Positions 1,430 to 57,723 of a stretch of DNA of 64,000 bases are shown here, piece by piece (within the stretch, counting starts at the first letter, position 1; every line of letters starts with the position of its first letter). Below the pieces are notes generated by a model. The model saw nothing but the letters and a program-made list of their open reading frames with translations, searched no databases and was not told the DNA's origin. The DNA is from Candidatus Pacearchaeota archaeon. Lineage in GTDB: Archaea; Nanobdellota; Nanobdellia; Pacearchaeales; GW2011-AR1. The translations under genes were made by a program, and so were the position numbers. The DNA is taken from NCBI GenBank assembly GCA_018304025.1, contig JAGVXA010000006.1:8077-72076 (forward strand), given 5' to 3'.

Positions 1430-3985
1430 TTAAAGATATTTCCCGTCCTTCTTATAATTAAAATATTTCACCACCTCAAACCAAACCACACTTAATCCCG
1501 CTGCCCCGAATGCAATCAAACCATCCATCAAGTGTAGCTGTTCAAATTTAAAAACCCCTCTTAAAACAGGAACATACAGCGACAATCCTAAAAATATCAA
1601 AGCCCCCAAAGCAACAAACCAAAACGCTTTATTTTTTTCAAAAACAGTTTCGTAAATCGGCTTCGACATCGATCTGCTGCTGAGAATTAAAAGAAGATTA
1701 GAGAATATAAGGGTGCAAAAACTCAGCGCCCGCGCCTCGCTTTCATTATTAGTCAATCTCAAAGTCAAATAAAAAACCAAAGCAACAACGAACAGCATAA
1801 TCAATCCCTGCAAGACGCTAAAAACTAAAGTATTCTTATTAAAAATTTTCTCGCGCGGATTTCGCGGCTTTCTCGACATGATATTTTTTTCTTCTCTTTC
1901 AGCTTCAAAAACAATTGAGCAAGTAGGGTCAATTATTAATTCCAAAAACAAAATATGGACTGGCAGTAAAATAAGAGGCCATCCGAATATAAGCGCAAGA
2001 ACAGTAATTCCAGCTATTGGAATATGCATGGACAAAACATAAGCCATCGCTTTTCTGATGTTGTCGAAAATTCTTCTTCCCATTTTAATTCCGTCAACAA
2101 TCGACGTAAAATCATCATCTAAAAGAACAACCGAAGACGCCTCTCTTGCGACATCAGTTCCGCGCGAGCCCATCGCAATGCCAACACTGGCTGATTTTAA
2201 AGCAGGAGCGTCATTGACTCCGTCTCCAGTCATCGCGACAATTTCACCGTTTGATTTTAACGCATTGACTATCCTGAGCTTTTGTCGGGGAACAACTCTC
2301 ACAAACAAGTTGACTTCCCTAATTTCTTTTTTCAATTGCTCGTCGCTCATTTTTTCTAATTCAGCTCCAGTTATGAATTTTTTAGGGTTCCTAAGCCCAA
2401 TTTCCATCGCAATATTTTGTGCTGTCCCTGGATAATCTCCGGTAATCATAATGACTTTTATCCCCGCGTCATAACATTCCTTAATTGCTTGAGGAACAGT
2501 CGGCCTGACAGGATCTTCAAAACCAACTAACCCCACAAATTCAAAATTAAAATCGTGCTGGTTTTCTGGCAGATTCCCCGCAAATTTTGCAACACCTATT
2601 GCTATCACTCTTAATCCCGAATGCGAAAATTCTGTTGCTTCTTTTAATATTTTTTTCTTCTCCCCAATTCTTAAATGGCACAAATCAATAATCGCTTCCG
2701 GCGCCCCTTTCGCAGCAACAATATGTTCAACTTTATTTGGCCTGTCCCAAACATGCGAAACCGCCAGCAAACCATCGTGTAAAGGATATTCTTTAAGCAG
2801 ATGCCAGGTTTTATGAATAAACTTCTCTTCATTTCCCCGAGACAATTCCTTCAGCGCTTTTTCCATCGGATCAAAAGATTCTTTCTGGCTAGCCAATATT
2901 CCGTATTCAATAACGTCGTGAAACTCGCGCGGAATTTTATTTTTCCCGTCAATAAAGAAAATTTTATTTTCTTGATACAATCTTTTTACAGTCATTTTAT
3001 TCTGGGTAATAGTTCCCGTCTTGTCAGCGCACAGCACCGTCGTAGAGCCAAGTTCTTGTATCGCCTGCTGCCTCCTCGTTAAAACATTTTTCTTGGACAT
3101 TCTCCACGCGCCAAGTCCAAGGAATAAAGTTAAAACAACGGGGAACTCTTCTGGAAGAATCGACATCGCAAGAGTTATTCCAGATAAAAAAGCGTCCAGC
3201 CAGTTCTTCCTTAAAACCCCGTATGCTATAACCACCGCCGCGCACAATATCATCCCATATATAGCAAAATATTTTACAATGGACTTTGTCTCTTTCTGAA
3301 GATTTGTTTTTTCAATTTTTATTTCTTTCAGGGATTTTCCAATTTTTCCCATCTCAGTTTCAATTCCGATTTTTTTGACTATAGCAATTCCTCTTCCGCT
3401 TACAACTAATGTCCCGCTAAAAACAAAAGGAGTATTTTCTCCGCCAGGCGCCTGCATCACTATGCTTAAATTGTCTGTGTGTTCTTTCCTGACAACTGCT
3501 GATTCTCCTGTAAGCAAGCTTTCGTCAGTGCAAAGATTAGTGGAAGCCACAACAATTGCATCAGCCGGAACCCTGTCTCCTTCAGACAAAATAACAACGT
3601 CATTTTCAACAACTTCTTTTCCGGGAATTCTTCTGCTGACTCCTCCTCTGACAACGAGCGCCCGCGGGCTCGACAAATCTCTCAAGGCATCTAAAGATTT
3701 TTCTGTTTTGTTTTCCTGATAAATAGTTATCGTGATTATTACCGCAACAAAACCCAAAAGCATGAACGATTCTTTAACATCTCCGAGCATTAAATAAAAA
3801 ATCCAGCAGGCGATAAGCAAGAGAAACATCGGCTCTTTGAAAACTTCTAAAACAATGCCAAAAAAATTTTTCCTCTTCTCCCGAGGAAGCTCATTGTATC
3901 CGTATTTCTTTATTTTTTCATGAGCTTGTTTCTCGCTTAATCCCTCTAGATGCATCGAACTTAGCGTTTCTGTAATGCTTTGCAT
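1430..3985 (-). CDS. P-type cation-transporting ATPase (P2-like, Ca2+/Mg2+ type)
   Basis: DKTGTITQN phosphorylation motif, MITGDYPGTA, TGDGVNDAPAL hinge, N-terminal cation-ATPase-N segment, about 10 predicted TM segments. Confidence 0.9.
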   Translation of the reverse strand: MQSITETLSSMHLEGLSEKQAHEKIKKYGYNELPREKRKNFFGIVLEVFKEPMFLLLIACWIFYLMLGDVKESFMLLGFVAVIITITIYQENKTEKSLDALRDLSSPRALVVRGGVSRRIPGKEVVENDVVILSEGDRVPADAIVVASTNLCTDESLLTGESAVVRKEHTDNLSIVMQAPGGENTPFVFSGTLVVSGRGIAIVKKIGIETEMGKIGKSLKEIKIEKTNLQKETKSIVKYFAIYGMILCAAVVIAYGVLRKNWLDAFLSGITLAMSILPEEFPVVLTLFLGLGAWRMSKKNVLTRRQQAIQELGSTTVLCADKTGTITQNKMTVKRLYQENKIFFIDGKNKIPREFHDVIEYGILASQKESFDPMEKALKELSRGNEEKFIHKTWHLLKEYPLHDGLLAVSHVWDRPNKVEHIVAAKGAPEAIIDLCHLRIGEKKKILKEATEFSHSGLRVIAIGVAKFAGNLPENQHDFNFEFVGLVGFEDPVRPTVPQAIKECYDAGIKVIMITGDYPGTAQNIAMEIGLRNPKKFITGAELEKMSDEQLKKEIREVNLFVRVVPRQKLRIVNALKSNGEIVAMTGDGVNDAPALKSASVGIAMGSRGTDVAREASSVVLLDDDFTSIVDGIKMGRRIFDNIRKAMAYVLSMHIPIAGITVLALIFGWPLILLPVHILFLELIIDPTCSIVFEAEREEKNIMSRKPRNPREKIFNKNTLVFSVLQGLIMLFVVALVFYLTLRLTNNESEARALSFCTLIFSNLLLILSSRSMSKPIYETVFEKNKAFWFVALGALIFLGLSLYVPVLRGVFKFEQLHLMDGLIAFGAAGLSVVWFEVVKYFNYKKDGKYL

Positions 3986-4365: not shown

Positions 4366-4512
4366 ATTTATTTTATTCTTCATTTTTATTATTTCAAACC
4401 AAGCTAAATGCTTTTCTAAAAAGATGCAGAAGTTATCGATATAATTGTAATATCGCAAAATCGACGAGAATGCGAGTCGATTGAGCAAAGCAAATTAGGC
4501 TAAATTTAATCT

Positions 4513-5397
4513 CTATTCTTCACTTTTCTTTCTTTTAATTACTTTAACCGCAGCATTTTTTCCAGCTCTCGCAACCATTACGCCTTTCTTAATCAGCAAT
4601 TCATAAACAGTGAAAAACACAATTATCGAACCGGCAATTGCCGAAAATATAATTGCATAATCTTTGACAATATTTATCGTCGGAATCGCCTTCGCCGCGT
4701 CTAGCTTGTCCTTCTGGTATTCATATTCTTCTATGGCCAGCTTCAAATTCGAATTGGCATTTCTCAAATTTCCGTCGAGAACACTCGCTTCAGCAGTTCT
4801 CAAATATTTCTTCAAGTCATCAAGCGAAATTTTAGAAGTATCATACCCGTTATCTTTTTTATCAGAAATTTCCAGTTCCAGCGAAGCATATCTTCCTTTC
4901 AATTCTTCAATCTGCTGTGAAACATTTTCCAGTTCAATTCTTTCCTTTTCAGCGTCGGTAACATCTTCCTCGTCGGGATTTTCTACAGTTATATTCTTGT
5001 AAAATATCTCTCTGTCAACTCTCAAAGTTAAAGTCACATTCCCGCTTTCTTTTAAATTTCCATAAACCATTATGTAGGACTTTTCTCCAGGAGCGAGAGA
5101 ATCCGCCGGAACAATATCATAACTCGAATACCCTCTCCCTGAAACAAACGCTATCAGATTATTAATCGTCTCGTTCCCGTCATTTTTTATTTGTATATTA
5201 AACTGGACATCTCCTATTTTAGTTTCCGTCGGGAAAAAATTAACCAGAGAAATTCCAGTTGATTCAGTTGAAGTCTCAGATTCTTCTGCGTAAACAGTCC
5301 CAATTAAAAATAATGAAATAATCAAGCACAAAATAAATCTCCTTTTCCAACTTGCTTGGAAAACGAAGGTTGTGTATTCGCATCCTCTTTTCATCAT
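4513..5397 (-). CDS. secreted coiled-coil protein with C-terminal TM anchor
   Basis: Start moved to MMKRG (5397) by homology of the promoter/start region with the neighbouring gene. Signal peptide LIISLFLIGTVYA, Glu/Lys-rich coiled coil, C-terminal helix AIIFSAIAGSIIVFFTVY. Confidence 0.6.
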   Translation of the reverse strand: MMKRGCEYTTFVFQASWKRRFILCLIISLFLIGTVYAEESETSTESTGISLVNFFPTETKIGDVQFNIQIKNDGNETINNLIAFVSGRGYSSYDIVPADSLAPGEKSYIMVYGNLKESGNVTLTLRVDREIFYKNITVENPDEEDVTDAEKERIELENVSQQIEELKGRYASLELEISDKKDNGYDTSKISLDDLKKYLRTAEASVLDGNLRNANSNLKLAIEEYEYQKDKLDAAKAIPTINIVKDYAIIFSAIAGSIIVFFTVYELLIKKGVMVARAGKNAAVKVIKRKKSEE

Positions 5398-5436: not shown

Positions 5437-7210
5437 CAATCTGCCAATATGCTCTAGTTAAAACACATTGCGTCGGCGGAGTTTCTTCGCATCCCAATCC
5501 GCAAGGATCATAATCTGAAGCGCGCTGATTCGGATAGTCATCACAAGAATCAACTAGTGTACAAGTTGAACACGTTGATGCCTGCCACGAACATTTTACT
5601 AATTCCCCATCACAATCATAATGGCCATTTGAATAAGCATTAGTTCCATCATCAGGAAACCACCCACATCCATAATTCGCTCTGTACGTATCCCACATTT
5701 CTTCACTAAAATCTGACCAGCTTCGATCAGAATCCGGGTAAGGACCTTCCTCTGATAAAGCCCACATATATCTGTCTTGGTAATCAAACAAAGCGCTATT
5801 GTTCCATTCGTCTTTTATATCAAGAACCAACGAGGCCAACAGCCATCCATTCCAACTAGATGTTGTGCTGCCTTGCCTATAAGGCCCAATCCAACTAGGA
5901 TTATCTCGCTCTGGGTATTGAACATGCGCGCCACCATACTCCGGCAACCCTTTATGTTCATTCTCATACGCTCTTATATAAAATGTTGAAGCCCCAACAA
6001 CTGGAATCGTATTCCAACTCTCAGATAAGTTAGCTCTAAAAGGTGGAATTAAACCCGCCCATTTCGCGTCATCTGCTTCAATATATCTTATTTGCCCCGC
6101 ACCAACACCATCAATTATTTCAATATAATTTCCTCTCAAGTTTGTATAACTAGGAATACTACCAACAATAAAATAATCTGGACCGAATTCTGTTATTGTA
6201 ATTTTCTGGATATTATGCTCAAGATCAATGTCTGATTGACTCACATAAAAAGTTTGAGAATCCTCCCCGAATAAATTTTGTTCAGGAAAATATAATTTGC
6301 CAATATTTTTCATATTAGATTCACCAAGCATAAGTCCCGCAAATAAAATCGGGAATTTTCTTCCAGAAGCATGTCCCCCATCTTGTGGCCATGCGCCTCC
6401 ATTTTTAAGAATCCAATAATGATCAATCCCGTTTTGAATTAATGCGTTTCTTACAGTACTTTTATCAGAAGCGTCTTTGTCTAACAGCAAAAAACACGCA
6501 GCCTCTTGAACATCATTAGACAACTCTCTTCCATAATTTGCCATATTATCGACCGGAAAAATGTAGATTCCACCTGTTTGATTTAAATGATCTAGCCATA
6601 CTCTATTAATTGTTGGAAGAATAATATTTGCTTCGGGAGTGCTTACAACAGACGGCAAATTAGGCAATTCAAAATTTGTTTGCGATTCTATGTAAATTGT
6701 CTTTGTGTCTCCAACATAAGCTGGCCTAAATGAATCTACTGGAGGAACTTCTGCCAGGCAAGTTAATACAACTGCAGATTTAAGATACGATGCAGTAGGC
6801 CTTGCTGCGCCTTCTGGCCAGCTCTCAGAAGAAACAAGGGAAACACCAGGATTTAAAATAAATGGAAAGTCAATCCGCTCTGAAGAAGCCCATGATCCCG
6901 CACGTTGGTCAAAAGATTGTTTTCCAGGCATCGGATTTGCCATTGAGCCACTCCTCAAGGATCCACTCACCTCATAAGGCGCAGGATCCACACCTATCAC
7001 ATTCACAATCCCTGTAACCGAATCAATCTTCACCCAATAATCTCCATTCACAAAAGTCCCGCATTCATACGGCTTGTCAAAGAACCAGGTTATCCCATAC
7101 TGCGAAATATTATTCCCGACTGTAACACCACCAGCGCACTCCGCAGAAACACTTCCCAATAAACTAAATAAAAAGATCAAACTAAAAAATAACATAGCCC
7201 TCTTTATCAT
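5432..7210 (-). CDS. secreted protein, unknown function, Cys-rich C-terminus
   Basis: Signal peptide MIKRAMLFFSLIFLFSLLGSVSA. 592 aa with no recognisable catalytic motif. The last about 60 aa contain many Cys. Confidence 0.65.
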   Translation of the reverse strand: MIKRAMLFFSLIFLFSLLGSVSAECAGGVTVGNNISQYGITWFFDKPYECGTFVNGDYWVKIDSVTGIVNVIGVDPAPYEVSGSLRSGSMANPMPGKQSFDQRAGSWASSERIDFPFILNPGVSLVSSESWPEGAARPTASYLKSAVVLTCLAEVPPVDSFRPAYVGDTKTIYIESQTNFELPNLPSVVSTPEANIILPTINRVWLDHLNQTGGIYIFPVDNMANYGRELSNDVQEAACFLLLDKDASDKSTVRNALIQNGIDHYWILKNGGAWPQDGGHASGRKFPILFAGLMLGESNMKNIGKLYFPEQNLFGEDSQTFYVSQSDIDLEHNIQKITITEFGPDYFIVGSIPSYTNLRGNYIEIIDGVGAGQIRYIEADDAKWAGLIPPFRANLSESWNTIPVVGASTFYIRAYENEHKGLPEYGGAHVQYPERDNPSWIGPYRQGSTTSSWNGWLLASLVLDIKDEWNNSALFDYQDRYMWALSEEGPYPDSDRSWSDFSEEMWDTYRANYGCGWFPDDGTNAYSNGHYDCDGELVKCSWQASTCSTCTLVDSCDDYPNQRASDYDPCGLGCEETPPTQCVLTRAYWQIV

Positions 7211-19662: not shown

Positions 19663-20689
19663 TTAAATTTTCTCAATTAAAGTATTAATTATTTCTTTTT
19701 TGAAATTCTCGCTTAAATTAAATGTATTTGCCCAGCGAGCATACGCCCGCCATCCATCAAAACTATCTTTAACAGATCCAAATTCATAACCACTCTCTTC
19801 AAATGATTTTATTTTATTTTTCATTCCGCGAATATTTCTAGTTCTCAATAGTTTATGGCTGGGAAAATTTCTAAAACCTAAAAAATCTATTCCTCTATAA
19901 ACTGAAATTATTTTAGTTTTGTCTGGATGTAACGATATGCCTAAATTGTCTTTAAGAAAGACATCAATCGCCCCCCCCCCCCGCAGTCAAATCCGCCCGC
20001 CGCCGATTCAAAATAACAAAGTCATCAACATATCTTATATAATATTTTTCTCGCAAAACATATTTGACAAAATAATCCAAGTCATTAAGATAAAGATTAG
20101 CAAAAAATTGCGACGTCAAATTGCCGAGAGGCATTCCAATTCCCTCTTTTTCAGTATTTCTTAAAATCTGAGCAATCAGCCAAATAACTTTTTCATCTTT
20201 TATTTTCCTGCGGATTATTTCAATTAATTTATCATGGCGGATATTTTGAAAATAATGCCTAATATCTGCTTTCAAGCAAAAACCACAATTTGTAAAATTA
20301 TTCGTTACTTTCCTTGAAAATTTATCAAATCTTTTTATAGCAAATAAAGTCCCTTTCCCTTTTTGGTTTGCGCATGAATCAAAGATAAATCCTTTTTCAA
20401 ATATCGGGCCAATTATTTTAATTAAACTATGATGAACAACTCTATCTCGAAAATCCGACTTTGAAATCACTCTTGTCTTCGGGTCTCTATGAACAAATGT
20501 TATTAGAGGTTCGGGCTGATAACTCTTCTTCTTAAGTTCATAATGCAGCATAAGAAGATTTTTTACTAAATCTTTCTCAAATTCAATTACATCCTCCCGC
20601 GTAGTTTTCCCCTTTCTTGCTTTGCGCCAGGCCAAGGTTAAATTTCCTAAAGAACAAATCTTATCATATAAATTATTATACGTTTTCAT
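19663..20689 (-). CDS. DGR reverse transcriptase, interrupted by a +1-nt frameshift in a G12 (plus-strand C12) tract
   Basis: Start MKTYNNLYDKICS (ATG 20689). Motifs RVISKSDFRDRVVHH, DIRHYFQNI, MPLGNLTSQFFANLYL ((I/L/V)GxxxSQ, DGR-specific) and YVDDFVI. After the 19971..19982 homopolymer the protein continues in another frame as AIDVFLKDNLGISLHPDKTKIISVYRGIDFLGFR...WANTF. Length 1027 nt = 342 codons + 1 nt. Confidence 0.85.
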
Positions 20690-20713
20690 GAGTATTCCTA
20701 GCCAAAAAATCTG

Positions 20714-20801
20714 AACTATTCGACCATTCGCGTTGGAGTTAGACAGCCTATTGTTGTTGGAGTTCAAATTGCGGTTACTATTAAGGTTGAACCTGGAAAT
20801 G
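20714..20801 (-). repeat. DGR template repeat (TR)
   Basis: 88 nt, 24 nt upstream of the RT ATG. 29 adenines in coding sense; in VR frame it would read ...ISRFNLNSNRNLNSNNNRLSNSNANGRIV (AAY-rich). The 59 non-A positions are identical to both VRs. Confidence 0.9.
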
Positions 20802-21045
20802 GATAGCCATTTACTTTTCAAAGCCACCATCACTTCATATTTCACTGCGATACAAAAGCAGTTACTTAATGTCGTGATTGAATTTTATATTCTTGCAAAG
20901 CAAGAACGTAAGCAAACGACGTGTAGCCCAGCCATTTAATTGACTAGGAATCTTTAAAGAACGGAGAGGTATTTATTTCTTCCTATTCAAAGTTCGCATT
21001 TTTGCCAAGAAGTTTTAAGAAGGCAATTATTTCAGCGACGTGCCT

Positions 21046-21855
21046 TCAACGCCCAGTAATCTGGCGATGTATGGGGCTGTACTCAGCACCTTCGGCACGA
21101 ACGCAAACTACCCGACCATCCGCGTTGGAGTCAGACAGCCCATTGTAGTCGGAGTACAAATCGCGGCCACTATTAAGGTCGAACCTGGAAATGCCTAAAT
21201 TATCTTCTGAAGGTTTATTTTGTGTTGAGTTATATAGTCTTCTTTTTCCACTACCAAGTTTTGAAGGCAATCCTGTTCTAATTAGTTCTGAATCATTTTC
21301 ATCAAAATTATTCGTCGGTTCAGCAAGAATTTTAGCTGTTCGCAGTTCTGTTCCTCTTTGGAATTTTGGCATTACTCCATAATCTCCAAATTTTGTATTT
21401 CTTAATCCATATCCAATCATAACAGCAGGCAATCTATCAAAATCTCTTAACTCTTTAGGCAGGCCTTCAAAAGTTTGTACAGCTAACTCATGATTGTTTC
21501 CAGAAAAATCTAAAACAAGACCCATATCAACATAATGATTTCCTTGAATTCGGATGGGGTCGCCTTCTTGAAGAGTTCTTTCTAATTCCTCTGGTTTGAT
21601 AATTCTAAACTCCGGAGCAATAATTTGATTTACAACAGGCAAAATTAAAGGATTTGAACCGAAGGTAGTCGGGACTTCATTAATCTCTCCCGATCTTAAA
21701 ACTTTCAGATTATCATTTCCATTATACTTTGAATCAATAACATTATTAATTTCTTTTAGAGTCGCAAGGGCATTTTTTCCTTTTAGAATATAAGGAGTTA
21801 CAGTTAGTTGCGGAATTGCTGGTTCAAGTCCTATTTGTGATTTTGTTTTTTTCAT
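21046..21855 (-). CDS. DGR target protein 1 (VR near the C-terminus, putative C-type-lectin-fold ligand-binding end)
   Basis: 269 aa with no signal peptide or TM. The C-terminus ...GISRFDLNSGRDLYSDYNGLSDSNADGRVVCVRAEG contains VR1. Confidence 0.8.
   Translation of the reverse strand: MKKTKSQIGLEPAIPQLTVTPYILKGKNALATLKEINNVIDSKYNGNDNLKVLRSGEINEVPTTFGSNPLILPVVNQIIAPEFRIIKPEELERTLQEGDPIRIQGNHYVDMGLVLDFSGNNHELAVQTFEGLPKELRDFDRLPAVMIGYGLRNTKFGDYGVMPKFQRGTELRTAKILAEPTNNFDENDSELIRTGLPSKLGSGKRRLYNSTQNKPSEDNLGISRFDLNSGRDLYSDYNGLSDSNADGRVVCVRAEGAEYSPIHRQITGR
21106..21193 (-). repeat. DGR variable repeat VR1
   Basis: 88 nt collinear with the TR. 12 substitutions, all at TR-A positions (plus-strand T to C or A). 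Confidence 0.9.
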
Positions 21856-22724
21856 TATTTCTTTCCTTCTAATTGACTAACAATTTGATTAAGACAGTTT
21901 CTTGTTCCCCTTAAACTTTCTAAAAGTTCGCTTCTTCGTTGTTGTTCTAAGATATTTTCATAATTCGGCGCGCCGCCTTCGGCGGAAACAAGAACTACCC
22001 GACCATACGCGACGGAGCCAGACAGCCCATCGTAGTAGGAGCTCAAATTGCGGTAACTATTAAGGACGAACCTGGAAATGCCATCTTTTCTTGTATACCA
22101 TATTCTTTTTCCTCTTTCTTTATCAAGTCCAACAGGCATTCCAATTTCATCTATTTCATCAAATTTCCATCCACTATATTTTCCTAAAAATCTCTCGTCG
22201 TAATGAACATTAAATCCTTTAGATGGAACAGCAATAAATCCATATCCTTCATCTTCATTTGGCCGAATGTCAAATCCTGTGATTAAAGCAGGTTCTCTAG
22301 AAATTTTCACAGTGTCAATTTTCCCGCTTTCTGCAATCAATTCAGCTATTCTATTATTGTCTTCATTATAACCATCTTGTAGACTTCTAAAAACTAAAGC
22401 ATTCGCTGTAGTATAATGTTTCCCGTCAGTCATTCGCATAAACTCTTCATTCCAATCTTTCGGCAATGAAACTCTCACACCATATCGTCTGACAACTTGG
22501 TCTATGAGATTAGCATCAGGAACATTTGCGCCGACAACTTCGTCTCCTTTTCTTTCTAATTGAAAATGTTTGTTCCCATTAAATCTTTCTGCTTTCGCTT
22601 CCTGATAAGCTTCGTAAATTATTCGTCCTGCTTCGCCAACTAAAAACGAAGGTGTCTGAACTATCATTCCATTTTTTCTAGGGACAAATACAATTTGTCC
22701 AAGTTTTTTTGCTGTTTCTGTCAT
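21855..22724 (-). CDS. DGR target protein 2 (paralogue of target 1)
   Basis: 289 aa with no signal peptide or TM. ...GISRFVLNSYRNLSSYYDGLSGSVAYGRVVLVSAEG contains VR2. One-nt overlap with target 1. Confidence 0.8.
   Translation of the reverse strand: MTETAKKLGQIVFVPRKNGMIVQTPSFLVGEAGRIIYEAYQEAKAERFNGNKHFQLERKGDEVVGANVPDANLIDQVVRRYGVRVSLPKDWNEEFMRMTDGKHYTTANALVFRSLQDGYNEDNNRIAELIAESGKIDTVKISREPALITGFDIRPNEDEGYGFIAVPSKGFNVHYDERFLGKYSGWKFDEIDEIGMPVGLDKERGKRIWYTRKDGISRFVLNSYRNLSSYYDGLSGSVAYGRVVLVSAEGGAPNYENILEQQRRSELLESLRGTRNCLNQIVSQLEGKK
21993..22080 (-). repeat. DGR variable repeat VR2
   Basis: 88 nt collinear with the TR. 15 substitutions, all at TR-A positions. Confidence 0.9.
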
Positions 22725-22872: not shown

Positions 22873-23472
22873 ATGCCAAAGAAAAAAACAAAAGAAGAAT
22901 TTGAAAAAGAACTCCAGGAAACTTTAATCCAGGTAGGATTAAGAATAGCAAAAAGAGGAGAAGGAGCGTTATTTGTCGTCGGAGAAGTGAAATACAAGTT
23001 GTTGGTGGATCAAGATGTTCCCCCATTCAATGTTACAAAAAATCCAAAACTTCTCGAATCTTTGGCGATAATGGACGGAGCAGTAATCATAGACAGCGAC
23101 GGAAAAATGAAAGCATACGGCGCGATGATTAAATCAACCAGAACTTTCAAGAATTTCGGAACAAGGCATTCTGCAGGAATCTCCGCGTCAAAAAAAGGAA
23201 ACCTCGTCGTCATAATCTCAGAAGAAGACAAAAAAGTCCGCGTGTTAAAAGAAGGAAAAATGATTTTGCAGATTGACGCATTGCAGAAAGGAGTTGAAAA
23301 ATCCGTTCCGCAGGCAGTTAATTTATTGGAATCAATCGGCGCAGGCACTCTCGGTGCAATCGGAACTTCAATTTTAGTTCCAACTCTTGGAATAACTCTC
23401 GGCCCCGGAATTCTCGTCTTCGGCTCCGCGTATTATCTGACGAAGATTCTCTCGCAAAAGTTGAGGAAATAA
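22873..23472 (+). CDS. DisA_N/DAC-domain protein (diadenylate cyclase-like) with C-terminal TM helices
   Basis: GEGALFVVGE...MDGAVIIDSDGKMKAYGAMI...FGTRHSAGISASKKGNLVVIISEEDKKVRVLKEG follows the DAC blocks (DGA, GTRHRAA, vSEE.g.v). RHR is changed to RHS. Confidence 0.7.
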   Translation: MPKKKTKEEFEKELQETLIQVGLRIAKRGEGALFVVGEVKYKLLVDQDVPPFNVTKNPKLLESLAIMDGAVIIDSDGKMKAYGAMIKSTRTFKNFGTRHSAGISASKKGNLVVIISEEDKKVRVLKEGKMILQIDALQKGVEKSVPQAVNLLESIGAGTLGAIGTSILVPTLGITLGPGILVFGSAYYLTKILSQKLRK

Positions 23473-23865: not shown

Positions 23866-25191
23866 ATGTTCGTTCTTTTCGCTATGAAGAATAGAGATGA
23901 TTTAATGCTGCGATTAAATCCAAAATTTCAAAAAATTATTTTTCAAAAAACCCTTGACAAATACGGAGATTCCCTCAAGGCAGGTTCAATTTTAAAAATT
24001 CCTGCAAGTTCAGTCAGAGGGTATAAGAATCTTTATTTTGATAGTGTGCCCAAAAATTTAATTAACGAATTAATCAGATTAAAAATAACTACACAAGGAG
24101 AAATTAAATTAAACACCTTATCCTCATTTATCAAAAGTCAGAAAGTAAAAGAAATATTAGGCAAAGGAAGGGAAAAAAGAAACGAAATCTTCCAAACAAT
24201 AAGAAAAGAAATTCCCCCTGTTAAAAAAATAATCAACAGTGGTAACTTAGAATTTTATAGATGGTTTGATAAATATAAATTATTATTAGATGCGCCTTTT
24301 AGAAGGATTCAAGTTAAAAACAACGATGATTTCATTATTGTCGAATATACAAACCACACAAGACATGGAAATAAACACTTTAAGGTAAACTTGCCTAAAA
24401 AAATAAAACTTGATTCAGAATTCTTTTATTTTTTCGGATTATGGTGCGGCGACAGATCAGGCGGAAAAAGATTTGGAATCGCCAATAAAAATAATGAGAT
24501 TATTAATTTTACAGAATATTTTTTAAAACAGAATAAACAAAGAGTAGAAAAGATATTATACATCACAAAAGGTTTAGAAATTCCTCGAATTAAATACGAC
24601 AAAAAATTCGAATTAGAGAACGAGAAAAAAGGATGGGTGCTGTCAGTACATTCGAACAATGGGATTCTAGCCTCTTTTTTTTATTATCTTCAGTCGCATA
24701 TCACAGAGATATTAACATCAGAAAAAAGCAAATATTCTTTTTTTGCTGGACTTTTTGATGCCGAAGGAAACGTTTCATTATATAATAAATCATTTAGATG
24801 GGCCTGTAAAAACGAGAATTTAATTAAGATATACACTGAAATCATGAAAGGGATTAATTTATACAGTAGATACGACGGCTCAAGTATTGTATCCTACAAT
24901 TCTGAAAAATTTTATAATAAAATTCTCCCTTTTTTAAAGCACAGCGAAAAGATTAACAATACTAACTTTTTATATAACGGAGCAGGGAGATTGCCAAAAG
25001 GATTCGGAGAGATTTTGAATTATATCAACAAAAATCCTAAACTGTCTGCTAAAGACATAGCGGAAGGTTTAAAAAAGAACAAAGTTTACTCCGAATTGAA
25101 ATTGCTGAATGATTTTGGCTTTATCAAGCCTAGCAATTACCCGAAGGAGTTTGATATAACAACTAAGGGATTAAAATCATTAGGAGAATAA
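23866..25191 (+). CDS. free-standing double-motif LAGLIDADG homing-endonuclease-like protein with DNA-binding extensions
   Basis: FFGLWCGDRSGG and FFAGLFDAEGNVS are the two LAGLIDADG motifs. The TATA aaagtataaataca lies so close to the first ATG that the real start may be ATG 23884 (MKNRDD). Confidence 0.7.
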   Translation: MFVLFAMKNRDDLMLRLNPKFQKIIFQKTLDKYGDSLKAGSILKIPASSVRGYKNLYFDSVPKNLINELIRLKITTQGEIKLNTLSSFIKSQKVKEILGKGREKRNEIFQTIRKEIPPVKKIINSGNLEFYRWFDKYKLLLDAPFRRIQVKNNDDFIIVEYTNHTRHGNKHFKVNLPKKIKLDSEFFYFFGLWCGDRSGGKRFGIANKNNEIINFTEYFLKQNKQRVEKILYITKGLEIPRIKYDKKFELENEKKGWVLSVHSNNGILASFFYYLQSHITEILTSEKSKYSFFAGLFDAEGNVSLYNKSFRWACKNENLIKIYTEIMKGINLYSRYDGSSIVSYNSEKFYNKILPFLKHSEKINNTNFLYNGAGRLPKGFGEILNYINKNPKLSAKDIAEGLKKNKVYSELKLLNDFGFIKPSNYPKEFDITTKGLKSLGE

Positions 25192-57481: not shown

Positions 57482-57595
57482 ATCTAAAAAATTACTTTCA
57501 ACCTTTTAAATCTTTGGAATATTTACTATTAGATAGTTACGATAAAAAAGTAAGTGACCCCTCATTTGAATAACCTCAAATCTATTTCGAATAAA

Positions 57596-57669
57596 TGACC
57601 CCGATGGGATTTGAACCCACGACACCTGGCTTAAAAGGCCAGTGCTCTACCAGGCTGAGCTACGGAGCC
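57596..57669 (-). tRNA. tRNA-Lys (anticodon UUU)
   Basis: Minus strand GGCTCCGTAGCTCAGCCTGGTAGAGCACTGGCCTTTTAAGCCAGGTGTCGTGGGTTCAAATCCCATCGGGGTCA folds as a cloverleaf by hand: 7-bp acceptor stem with G-U pairs, anticodon loop CUUUUAA, GGTTCAAATCC T-arm. No encoded CCA. Confidence 0.85.
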
Positions 57670-57723
57670 ATATTGACGACACAATAGCGAAGACTGGTTT
57701 GAGTCCTTTCCTTCGTGGACGAT

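Follow-up and report, generated by a model that had tools for sequence, protein, structure and literature searches.

The retroelement and its reverse transcriptase gene

The DNA analysed here (the window) is a stretch of 64,000 nucleotides (nt) from contig JAGVXA010000006.1 (positions 8,077 to 72,076) of the Candidatus Pacearchaeota archaeon assembly GCA_018304025.1, and carries on its reverse strand a diversity-generating retroelement (DGR) whose reverse transcriptase (RT) gene is interrupted by a run of 12 guanines. The RT coding sequence starts with the ATG at position 20689 and, as written, consists of 241 codons and a TGA (19964-20689), which cover the fingers and palm motifs 1-5, including LGNLTSQ and YVDD. 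The C-terminal third of the protein (AIDVFLKDNL...IEKI, approximately 101 codons and a stop; 19663-19971, reverse strand), with the conserved GIDFLGF motif and the thumb, lies in the frame that is reached when the run holds 11 or 14 guanines.

The other components of the element were all found upstream of the RT gene on the same strand. A template repeat (TR) of 88 nt with 29 adenines (20714-20801) ends 25 nt upstream of the RT ATG, and two tandem target genes (21046-22724) encode proteins of 269 amino acids (aa; 21046-21855) and 289 aa (21855-22724), each with a variable repeat (VR) in its 3' part. All 12 mismatches between the TR and VR1 (21106-21193) fall at TR adenines (10 A>G, 2 A>T), as do all 15 between the TR and VR2 (21993-22080; 9 A>G, 6 A>T), and the target reading frames stop approximately 20 codons past the end of VR1 and 46 codons past that of VR2. 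The RT motifs of the DGR clade, (I/L)GxxxSQ and YxDD, could be read directly in the sequence; the repaired RT matched the Pfam family RVT_1 over residues 70-273 (E 4.5e-20) and aligned over residues 2-326 with its best solved relative, the BPP-1-type RT of PDB entry 8ub7_A (E 2.7e-49), gapless across the tract at 11 guanines (G11). With an RT of this clade, adenine-only TR/VR mismatches and VRs in the C-terminal parts of its targets, the element is a canonical DGR. Neither target protein had a match in Pfam, and the one target searched against PDB sequences (21046-21855) had none there. In a sequence-level search for an avd-like accessory gene, no open reading frame (ORF) was found between the first target and the TR, and the small neighbouring ORFs (107 aa and 125 aa) had no Avd match in Pfam.

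A poly-G tract sets the reading frame

The tract is read directly as C12 at positions 19971-19982 of the forward strand (...ATCG CCCCCCCCCCCC GCAGTC...), that is, as G12 on the coding strand of the RT gene, and begins 12 codons 3' of the YVDD motif. It is the sole G/C run of more than 6 nt within the window, which has a GC content of 37% and only three runs of 6; under an independent, identically distributed base composition, approximately 4e-4 runs of C12 would be expected by chance. Translation of alleles of different length showed that G12 yields 241 aa with the C-terminus ...LTAGGGGD, whilst G11 yields a 341-aa RT that reads ...AGGGAIDVFLKDNLGISLHPDKTKIISVYRGIDFLGFR... through to the stop at 19663, and G14 a 342-aa RT; G10 and G13 yield 248 aa and 249 aa, respectively. 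The RT is thus in frame when the tract length is 3n+2 (G8, G11 or G14), and G12 is out of frame. An initial annotation, made from the sequence of the window, had drawn attention to a 12-C run conspicuous in AT-rich DNA shortly after the catalytic motif, had proposed that 12 G ends the ORF at ...AGGGGD and that 11 G restores a 341-aa RT ending at 19663, and had quoted AGGGAIDVFLKDNLGISLHPDKTKIISVYRGIDFLGFR for the restored protein; all of this was reproduced here, the quoted residues exactly.

The frame can change only inside a 23-nt region with the tract at its centre, which extends from 4 nt before the run to 7 nt after it. The first ATG, GTG or TTG of the C-terminal frame in the window lies 40 codons past the tract, beyond GIDFLGF, too far downstream for the conserved segment to be made by initiation of its own; the position of the first start was also unconserved across lineages (-21 to +65 codons), and a split gene with re-initiation was ruled out. 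The 51 nt around the tract (19960-20010) have a GC content of 69%, compared with 37% for the genome, with codons NRRRADLTAGGGA (CGG CGG CGG GCG ...); this GC-rich patch is absent upstream of the tract in the sister lineage B described below.

Tract length varies within one population

All of the evidence on other genomes was drawn from assembly consensus sequences and predicted proteins. The 90%-identity protein cluster of the window RT contained members of 241, 241, 248, 341 and 342 aa, including MBS3088540.1 (Candidatus Pacearchaeota archaeon J4402) and AQS31742 and AQS31844 (both labelled 'uncultured archaeon'), and the 241-aa product of the window was identical to protein P0122 (MBS3088540.1, AQS31844.1). 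Six assemblies of one population, termed lineage A, were compared: the window, four contigs (L001-L004) and one Joint Genome Institute (JGI) assembly represented by its protein P0001 only. The tract was in frame in L001 (SAMN03202998, G11) and L002 (SAMN03842451, G14), and out of frame in the window (G12), in L004 (GGTG9, which is 12 nt with a G>T inside), in L003 (Logan SRR2090173; G14 followed by ATTG, a 12-nt equivalent with an adjoining C>G) and in the JGI contig (2 nt shorter than the window form), such that the alleles of lineage A cover all three frames. Over the approximately 10.7 kb shared by the five DNA sequences, differences were confined to the tract columns; contigs of 83,780, 83,781 and 83,783 bp corresponded to tracts of 11, 12 and 14, and the shared region also holds many A/T runs of 6-9 nt, all of them invariant. 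Both VRs were identical in all five assemblies, regardless of tract state. The initial annotation had raised a length switch among its options, and this gains support from the variation in tract length, with in-frame alleles included, among otherwise identical contigs (length variants G11, G12 and G14 and two substituted forms).

We considered whether the true tract of the window is an in-frame G11 encoding a tolerated Gly-Gly-Gly, with G12 representing a homopolymer miscall or a consensus of polymerase chain reaction (PCR) stutter. Homopolymers of 11 nt or longer are error-prone on Illumina platforms, G11 and G14 contigs occur in this same population, and the substitution variants in or next to the tract hint at low-quality base calls. 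However, the 12-nt-equivalent form was repeated in several assemblies from more than one assembler (an NCBI metagenome-assembled genome, the AQS records, Logan and ANAN16), the three added nucleotides of G14 are not typical of stutter, and the frame was also lost in related lineages with G8-G10, a range of lengths that is called reliably in a consensus. An artefact would also leave unexplained why a run of the rare codon GGG was kept, or evolved again, at one site in an AT-rich genome, and we regard this explanation as quite improbable. A separate candidate, the poly-G artefact of read ends in two-colour sequencing, was rejected by reasoning, given the colinear coding on both sides of the tract, the many data sets and the gapless in-frame alignments.

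A sister lineage retains the tract and the downstream frame

A sister lineage, lineage B, has an RT that is 77% identical in amino acids to that of the window and is found in a different genomic neighbourhood; its tract occupies precisely the codons that it does in the window. At least nine contigs had G9 and at least seven had G10, with none of the 16 in frame (megahit-style k141 contigs, ANAN16 and JGI assemblies). At G11, the RTs of both lineages are of 341 aa and end at a common stop. The proportions of nonsynonymous and synonymous differences (pN and pS; Nei-Gojobori method) were 0.12 and 0.76 before the tract, and 0.19 and 0.68 after it; the latter correspond to a ratio of nonsynonymous to synonymous substitution rates (dN/dS) of approximately 0.12, and the other two frames of the post-tract region contained 6-16 stops. 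The low ratio in one frame and the stops in the others together indicate that G11 is the frame in which the C-terminal third has been translated, and that purifying selection has preserved it while synonymous sites became saturated (pS 0.68-0.76). Through this same divergence the homopolymer itself has persisted.

Pairwise BLAST of its contigs showed two VR alleles in lineage B, each of them a derivative of the TR changed at adenines, and their backgrounds exceed 99.9% identity. The VR was the point of breakage in six of 12 contigs. G9 and G10 were each found in both strain types, L005-type and L014-type. These sequences provide evidence, from sequence comparison, that a lineage seen only out of frame may nonetheless have an active DGR. 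Five clustered single-nucleotide polymorphisms in L005 (4608-4628), located 30-50 nt past the VR (4483-4577) on its 3' side, also separate the two strain types; ordinary adenine mutagenesis does not explain them because they lie outside the TR homology.

Lineage B brings a further explanation into play, that of programmed recoding, in which the out-of-frame DNA is the normal state, stuttering of RNA polymerase on the C-run template and/or ribosomal slipping on G GGG GGG maintains a low dose of RT, and the variation in DNA is a by-product; the initial annotation had likewise listed transcriptional or translational slippage. Leaky expression of this kind would explain the signs of DGR activity, namely the two adenine-derived VR alleles, in a lineage that was out of frame in 16 of 16 contigs and under purifying selection in its C-terminal frame. 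Homopolymers of 8 nt or longer are typical motifs of transcriptional slippage (PMC3711429, PMC1088944), and the confinement of any frame change to the 23 nt centred on the tract is likewise in keeping with recoding. Against it, the direction of the shift was not conserved, even within one lineage: out-of-frame alleles have one or two extra nucleotides in lineage A, and G9 or G10 in lineage B.

The tract recurs at one site in related reverse transcriptases

Metagenome contigs were scanned for a DNA pattern (GATGAYTTTGT, then 28-38 nt, then G8), which returned mostly noise; the matches listed nevertheless included approximately 18 different lineages of RT in which a run of G8-G11 occupies this site, at 44-64% identity to the RT of the window. 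Three of these lineages were in frame and 14 out of frame by one or two extra nucleotides, again among the matches listed, and all had an open downstream frame of 93-116 codons with a conserved I(E/D)xFL..LKLELHPxKSKII.LSxG(I/V)D segment. The tract thus occurs at the same site in lineage B and in at least 20 more distant lineages, which answers the comparison of orthologues suggested in the initial annotation. A search unbiased by the C-terminus was made with only the N-terminal 227 aa as a query; among the 120 closest 90%-identity clusters, 89 were full length without a glycine run, 22 ended immediately after ...GGG(D/R/N), nine were short for other reasons, and none was full length with a glycine run, which places the tract in approximately 20% of the closest RT clusters. 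Most relatives lacked the tract in a scan of GTDB, which was limited to the 80 best matches, is biased to intact genes and served only to demonstrate this point. A scan of viral contigs gave a single match, which was not an RT.

Roughly one quarter of the alleles were in frame and three quarters out of frame, with both shifted frames represented; the in-frame share is close to the one third expected under free drift of tract length. In at least seven lineages, in-frame and out-of-frame alleles were found in near-identical backgrounds. Lineages D, E, F and G each contained in-frame and out-of-frame cluster members with identical N-termini; in lineage C, the tract differed between L057 (G10) and L140 (G9), which have identical local flanks (approximately 50 nt 5' and 20 nt 3'); and L218 with G10 and L102 with G9, of which only the latter is in frame, showed one difference in 7,196 bp, which was the tract. 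On a neighbour-joining tree, the tract-bearing RTs formed 12 groups and the tract-less state was ancestral, which suggests that the tract was gained, or lost, many times at one codon position.

These alleles bear again on the question of sequencing error. The out-of-frame consensus was found at tracts of only G8 (L029, L081, L122 and L127), the G9 and G10 calls of lineage B were reproducible, and one assembly, ERZ28564304, contained an in-frame tract of lineage A beside an out-of-frame tract of lineage F. Given the G8 alleles and the recurrence of the tract, the simple assembly error that the initial annotation had allowed for is insufficient as an explanation.

As for programmed recoding, the preponderance of out-of-frame DNA, in approximately three quarters of tract-bearing alleles and in 22 of 22 tract-bearing cluster representatives, is what it would lead one to expect. 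However, in-frame DNA alleles reached consensus in at least seven lineages, which would be unexpected were in-frame DNA harmful, no stable RNA structure was predicted beside the tract (fold z = -0.33), and the 0-frame stop varies in position between lineages, lying 6-66 nt past the tract. Neither the one conserved direction of shift nor the lack of in-frame DNA alleles that would mark a programmed frameshift was observed. Recoding as the main route is considered unlikely, and it would be compatible with simultaneous switching at the DNA level. Conserved alternative C-terminal tails in the shifted frames were ruled out separately, the tails (GGGGD and GGGRLMSFLKTI, each followed by a stop, and GGGRLTFFSE...) being short and unrelated.

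The tract could also be an incidental mutational hot spot in a recent pseudogene of a DGR that is dying in the lineage, a reading with which the invariant VR consensus of the five lineage A assemblies and the lack of an evident avd-like gene between target and TR would agree. Decay of this kind is difficult to reconcile with the state of the gene. The RT carries no other inactivating lesion, its C-terminal frame is open with a dN/dS of approximately 0.12 at saturated synonymous sites, and in-frame alleles exist in the same population. Moreover, the open C-terminal frame of 93-116 codons was kept in 16 of 16 out-of-frame lineages tested, in which the alternative frames had 6-16 stops per 100 codons, and pN/pS of the post-tract frame over 120 pairs of out-of-frame lineages had a median of 0.40 and a maximum of no more than 0.65 (uncorrected values, with pS saturated). 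We therefore consider a pseudogene very improbable. The initial annotation had held that orthologues without a homopolymer, together with further lesions here, would point to a plain pseudogene; instead, the tract recurs, and past it there is an unbroken frame on which purifying selection acts.

A different DGR, with an RT 40% identical to that of the window and a GC content of approximately 40%, has a poly-G run in the interval from its TR to its RT gene, at a distance of 51 nt 5' of the ATG. The run is G12 in L025 (Ga0209542_10000656, reverse complement 6977-6988) and G15 in L058 (Ga0209541_10001695, forward strand 3892-3906), and this is the sole difference in 8,307 aligned bp. It looks like a second kind of variable homopolymer on a DGR RT, located in the 5' leader or TR-RT spacer.

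Apparent selection on the nucleotide run

Glycine codons in the window are GGG in 16% of instances and GGA in 54%, and the RT tract was essentially the only G/C run of 7 nt or longer in approximately 130 kb of related loci; the sole other such run in these flanks of tract-bearing RTs was a G8 in L123 (13965-13972). In an AlphaFold model of the RT (mean pLDDT 86.7; 94-95 for the block), the glycine triplet (residues 237-239) sits in the middle of a helix (231-249); relatives that lack the tract have a conserved ...EW(K/R)E(K)I... in its place. From codon usage, alignment and model alike, selection at the tract appears to act on the DNA sequence and not on the protein. An origin of the G run from the DGR's own adenine mutagenesis was considered and dropped, as adjoining adenines are untouched.

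A probable phase-variable mutator

Several features by which contingency loci are recognised were found at this tract: it is intragenic, exceeds 7-8 nt and sets the reading frame; it is polymorphic in length, with both allele types present in assembly consensus; and it is over-represented and conserved in orthologues. We judge it probable, from these comparisons, that the tract is a genuine, selectively maintained and hypermutable contingency (phase-variation) locus that renders the DGR phase-variable at the DNA level, and it is most likely a heritable on/off switch for the DGR mutator. The switch that the initial annotation had listed among its interpretations is thereby supported by the recurrence of the tract, its length polymorphism and the intact, selected C-terminal frame.

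In the mechanism that we propose, slipped-strand mispairing during replication in vivo would add or remove guanines. At lengths of 3n+2 (G11 and G14), the full 341- or 342-aa RT would be made, and the TR would be copied into the two target genes with adenine mutagenesis. At other lengths, including the G12 of the window, translation would end a few codons past the tract, and since the thumbless 241-aa product is presumably inactive, the current VR sequences would be frozen in this OFF state. DGR activity would then follow the state of the tract, and with frequent and reversible switching the population would hold heritable ON and OFF subclones of a targeted mutator. Slippage at the RNA level or on the ribosome may contribute as well. 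As to the wider set of DPANN DGR RTs, on balance we incline to the view that poly-G contingency tracts arose many times over at a single codon position, which would permit diversification in frame and the locking of a variant by slipping out of frame.

Several points weigh against phase variation at the DNA level. Lineage B was never in frame in its 16 contigs, an observation that expression through slippage would explain no less well than DNA switching, and in lineage A the invariant VR consensus shows no link between an in-frame tract and diversification. Part of the tract variation in lineage A is probably technical, because the two substitution variants (the G>T of L004 and the C>G of L003) look like base-calling noise; stutter from Illumina sequencing and PCR is substantial at G11-G14. 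Some contigs counted as 'independent' stem from the same Rifle samples, deposited or assembled a second time, tract states were read from assembly consensus, such that heterogeneity within a sample and reversibility are inferred, and the tree from which origins were counted is a crude neighbour-joining tree of 215 aa.

To our knowledge, the regulation of DGRs is largely unknown, and retrohoming without regulation would continually overwrite useful variants. If the tract is a contingency locus, it would offer a simple answer, in which a subpopulation mutates and then freezes; no genetic regulator of a DGR would have been described before it, ultra-small archaea would gain a clear example of phase variation by simple sequences, and it would link contingency loci and DGRs, two classic 'evolvability' devices. 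There is also a practical consequence, in that truncated 'hypothetical proteins' is the annotation of approximately one fifth of the DPANN DGR RT clusters nearest to the window RT, and surveys that score DGR activity or demand intact RTs will misjudge tract-bearing DGRs.

Other features of the locus

Upstream of its ATG, the RT frame remains open through the whole TR, from a GTG at 20845 (20689-20845, reverse strand), and for this reason N-terminally extended RTs that translate the TR are sometimes called in related lineages (P0130, P0185 and P0186). The open frame across the TR probably just reflects that the TR keeps the open frame of the VR. A GC-rich hairpin, CCGCC-GAAG-GGCGG, lies directly 3' of VR2 (approximately 21970-21986, reverse strand), with a weaker copy after VR1, and was also seen in L005 (approximately 4578-4600); it resembles the hairpin reported for target recognition in the Bordetella phage DGR.

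The DGR targets are adjoined upstream, on the opposite strand, by a gene for a DAC (DisA_N, di-adenylate cyclase) protein with a hydrophobic C-terminal tail (22873-23472, forward strand). Beyond it is a free-standing ORF of 441 aa (23866-25191, forward strand) with a weak LAGLIDADG_3 match (E 9e-4) and winged-helix matches, both under the Pfam cut-offs; this may be a homing-endonuclease-like gene, located approximately 1.1 kb beyond the outermost target (22724) with the DAC gene between them. GC skew on the forward strand of the window is strongly and near-uniformly negative (10,073 G, 13,629 C), with brief reversals at 24-28 kb and 30-32 kb, and the 64 kb contain one tRNA (Lys-TTT, 57595-57670).

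Comparison with known systems

The AQS31742 and AQS31844 records are proteins reportedly deposited by Paul et al. (2017; Nat Microbiol 2:17045) in their work on DGRs of DPANN and Candidate Phyla Radiation (CPR) organisms in groundwater, and these DGRs have the RT clade, the Rifle aquifer populations and the cassette layout in common with the window DGR. The 241-aa truncated products are already in GenBank as 'hypothetical protein'. Two large surveys of DGRs (PMC5758913, PMC8144416) make no mention of a frameshifted or homopolymer-bearing RT, nor of the recurrence of a tract. A full-text literature search for DGRs together with homopolymers, frameshifts or phase variation returned nothing relevant, and the papers on recoding and frame transitions that were checked do not cover DGR RTs. 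The initial annotation had held regulation of a DGR by a homopolymer to be new; the literature searched contained no prior description, although an earlier mention in Paul et al. (2017) is possible.

The RT of the Bordetella phage BPP-1 DGR (bRT; PDB 8ub7 series) is homologous to that of the window, with the (I/L)GxxxSQ and YxDD motifs, and the two systems share adenine-only TR/VR mismatches and VRs at the 3' ends of targets. The bRT has no homopolymer, and reads ...EELRAVFYRLRDF... inside a helix at the site of the tract. The window DGR further differs from that of BPP-1 in its archaeal host (Pacearchaeota, DPANN), its two tandem targets, a TR that abuts the RT start and no evident avd.

Slippage provides a second comparison. 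Poly-A tracts of endosymbionts, reportedly described by Tamas et al. in 2008, are said to be cases in which slippage rescues homopolymer frameshifts. Transcriptional slippage in insertion sequence elements (PMC1088944) resembles the present case in that a long homopolymer occupies the sole overlap of two frames, and the downstream frame is conserved despite out-of-frame DNA. Known slippage cases, however, involve A/T runs and usually a fixed shift, whereas here the run is of G, both classes of shift occur and in-frame DNA alleles are also found.

A third comparison is with the poly-G/C contingency loci of Campylobacter jejuni, Neisseria and Haemophilus, with which the tract shares its nature as an intragenic run of G8-G14 in an AT-rich genome, polymorphism in length between otherwise identical genomes, the presence of in-frame and out-of-frame alleles and a strong excess over composition; switching by homopolymeric tracts is well established in prokaryotes generally (PMC2831843, PMC5084427, PMC11868660). 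Those loci mostly concern surface structures, restriction-modification and transporters of host-associated bacteria, whereas here a targeted mutator would have its polymerase gene switched, in DPANN archaea that live freely or as episymbionts, and the tract appears to have originated repeatedly at one homologous codon position. Homopolymer phase variation and the DGRs of DPANN archaea were both already known; what is new here is a putative simple-sequence switch on a targeted-mutator polymerase, which would have arisen repeatedly in ultra-small archaea.

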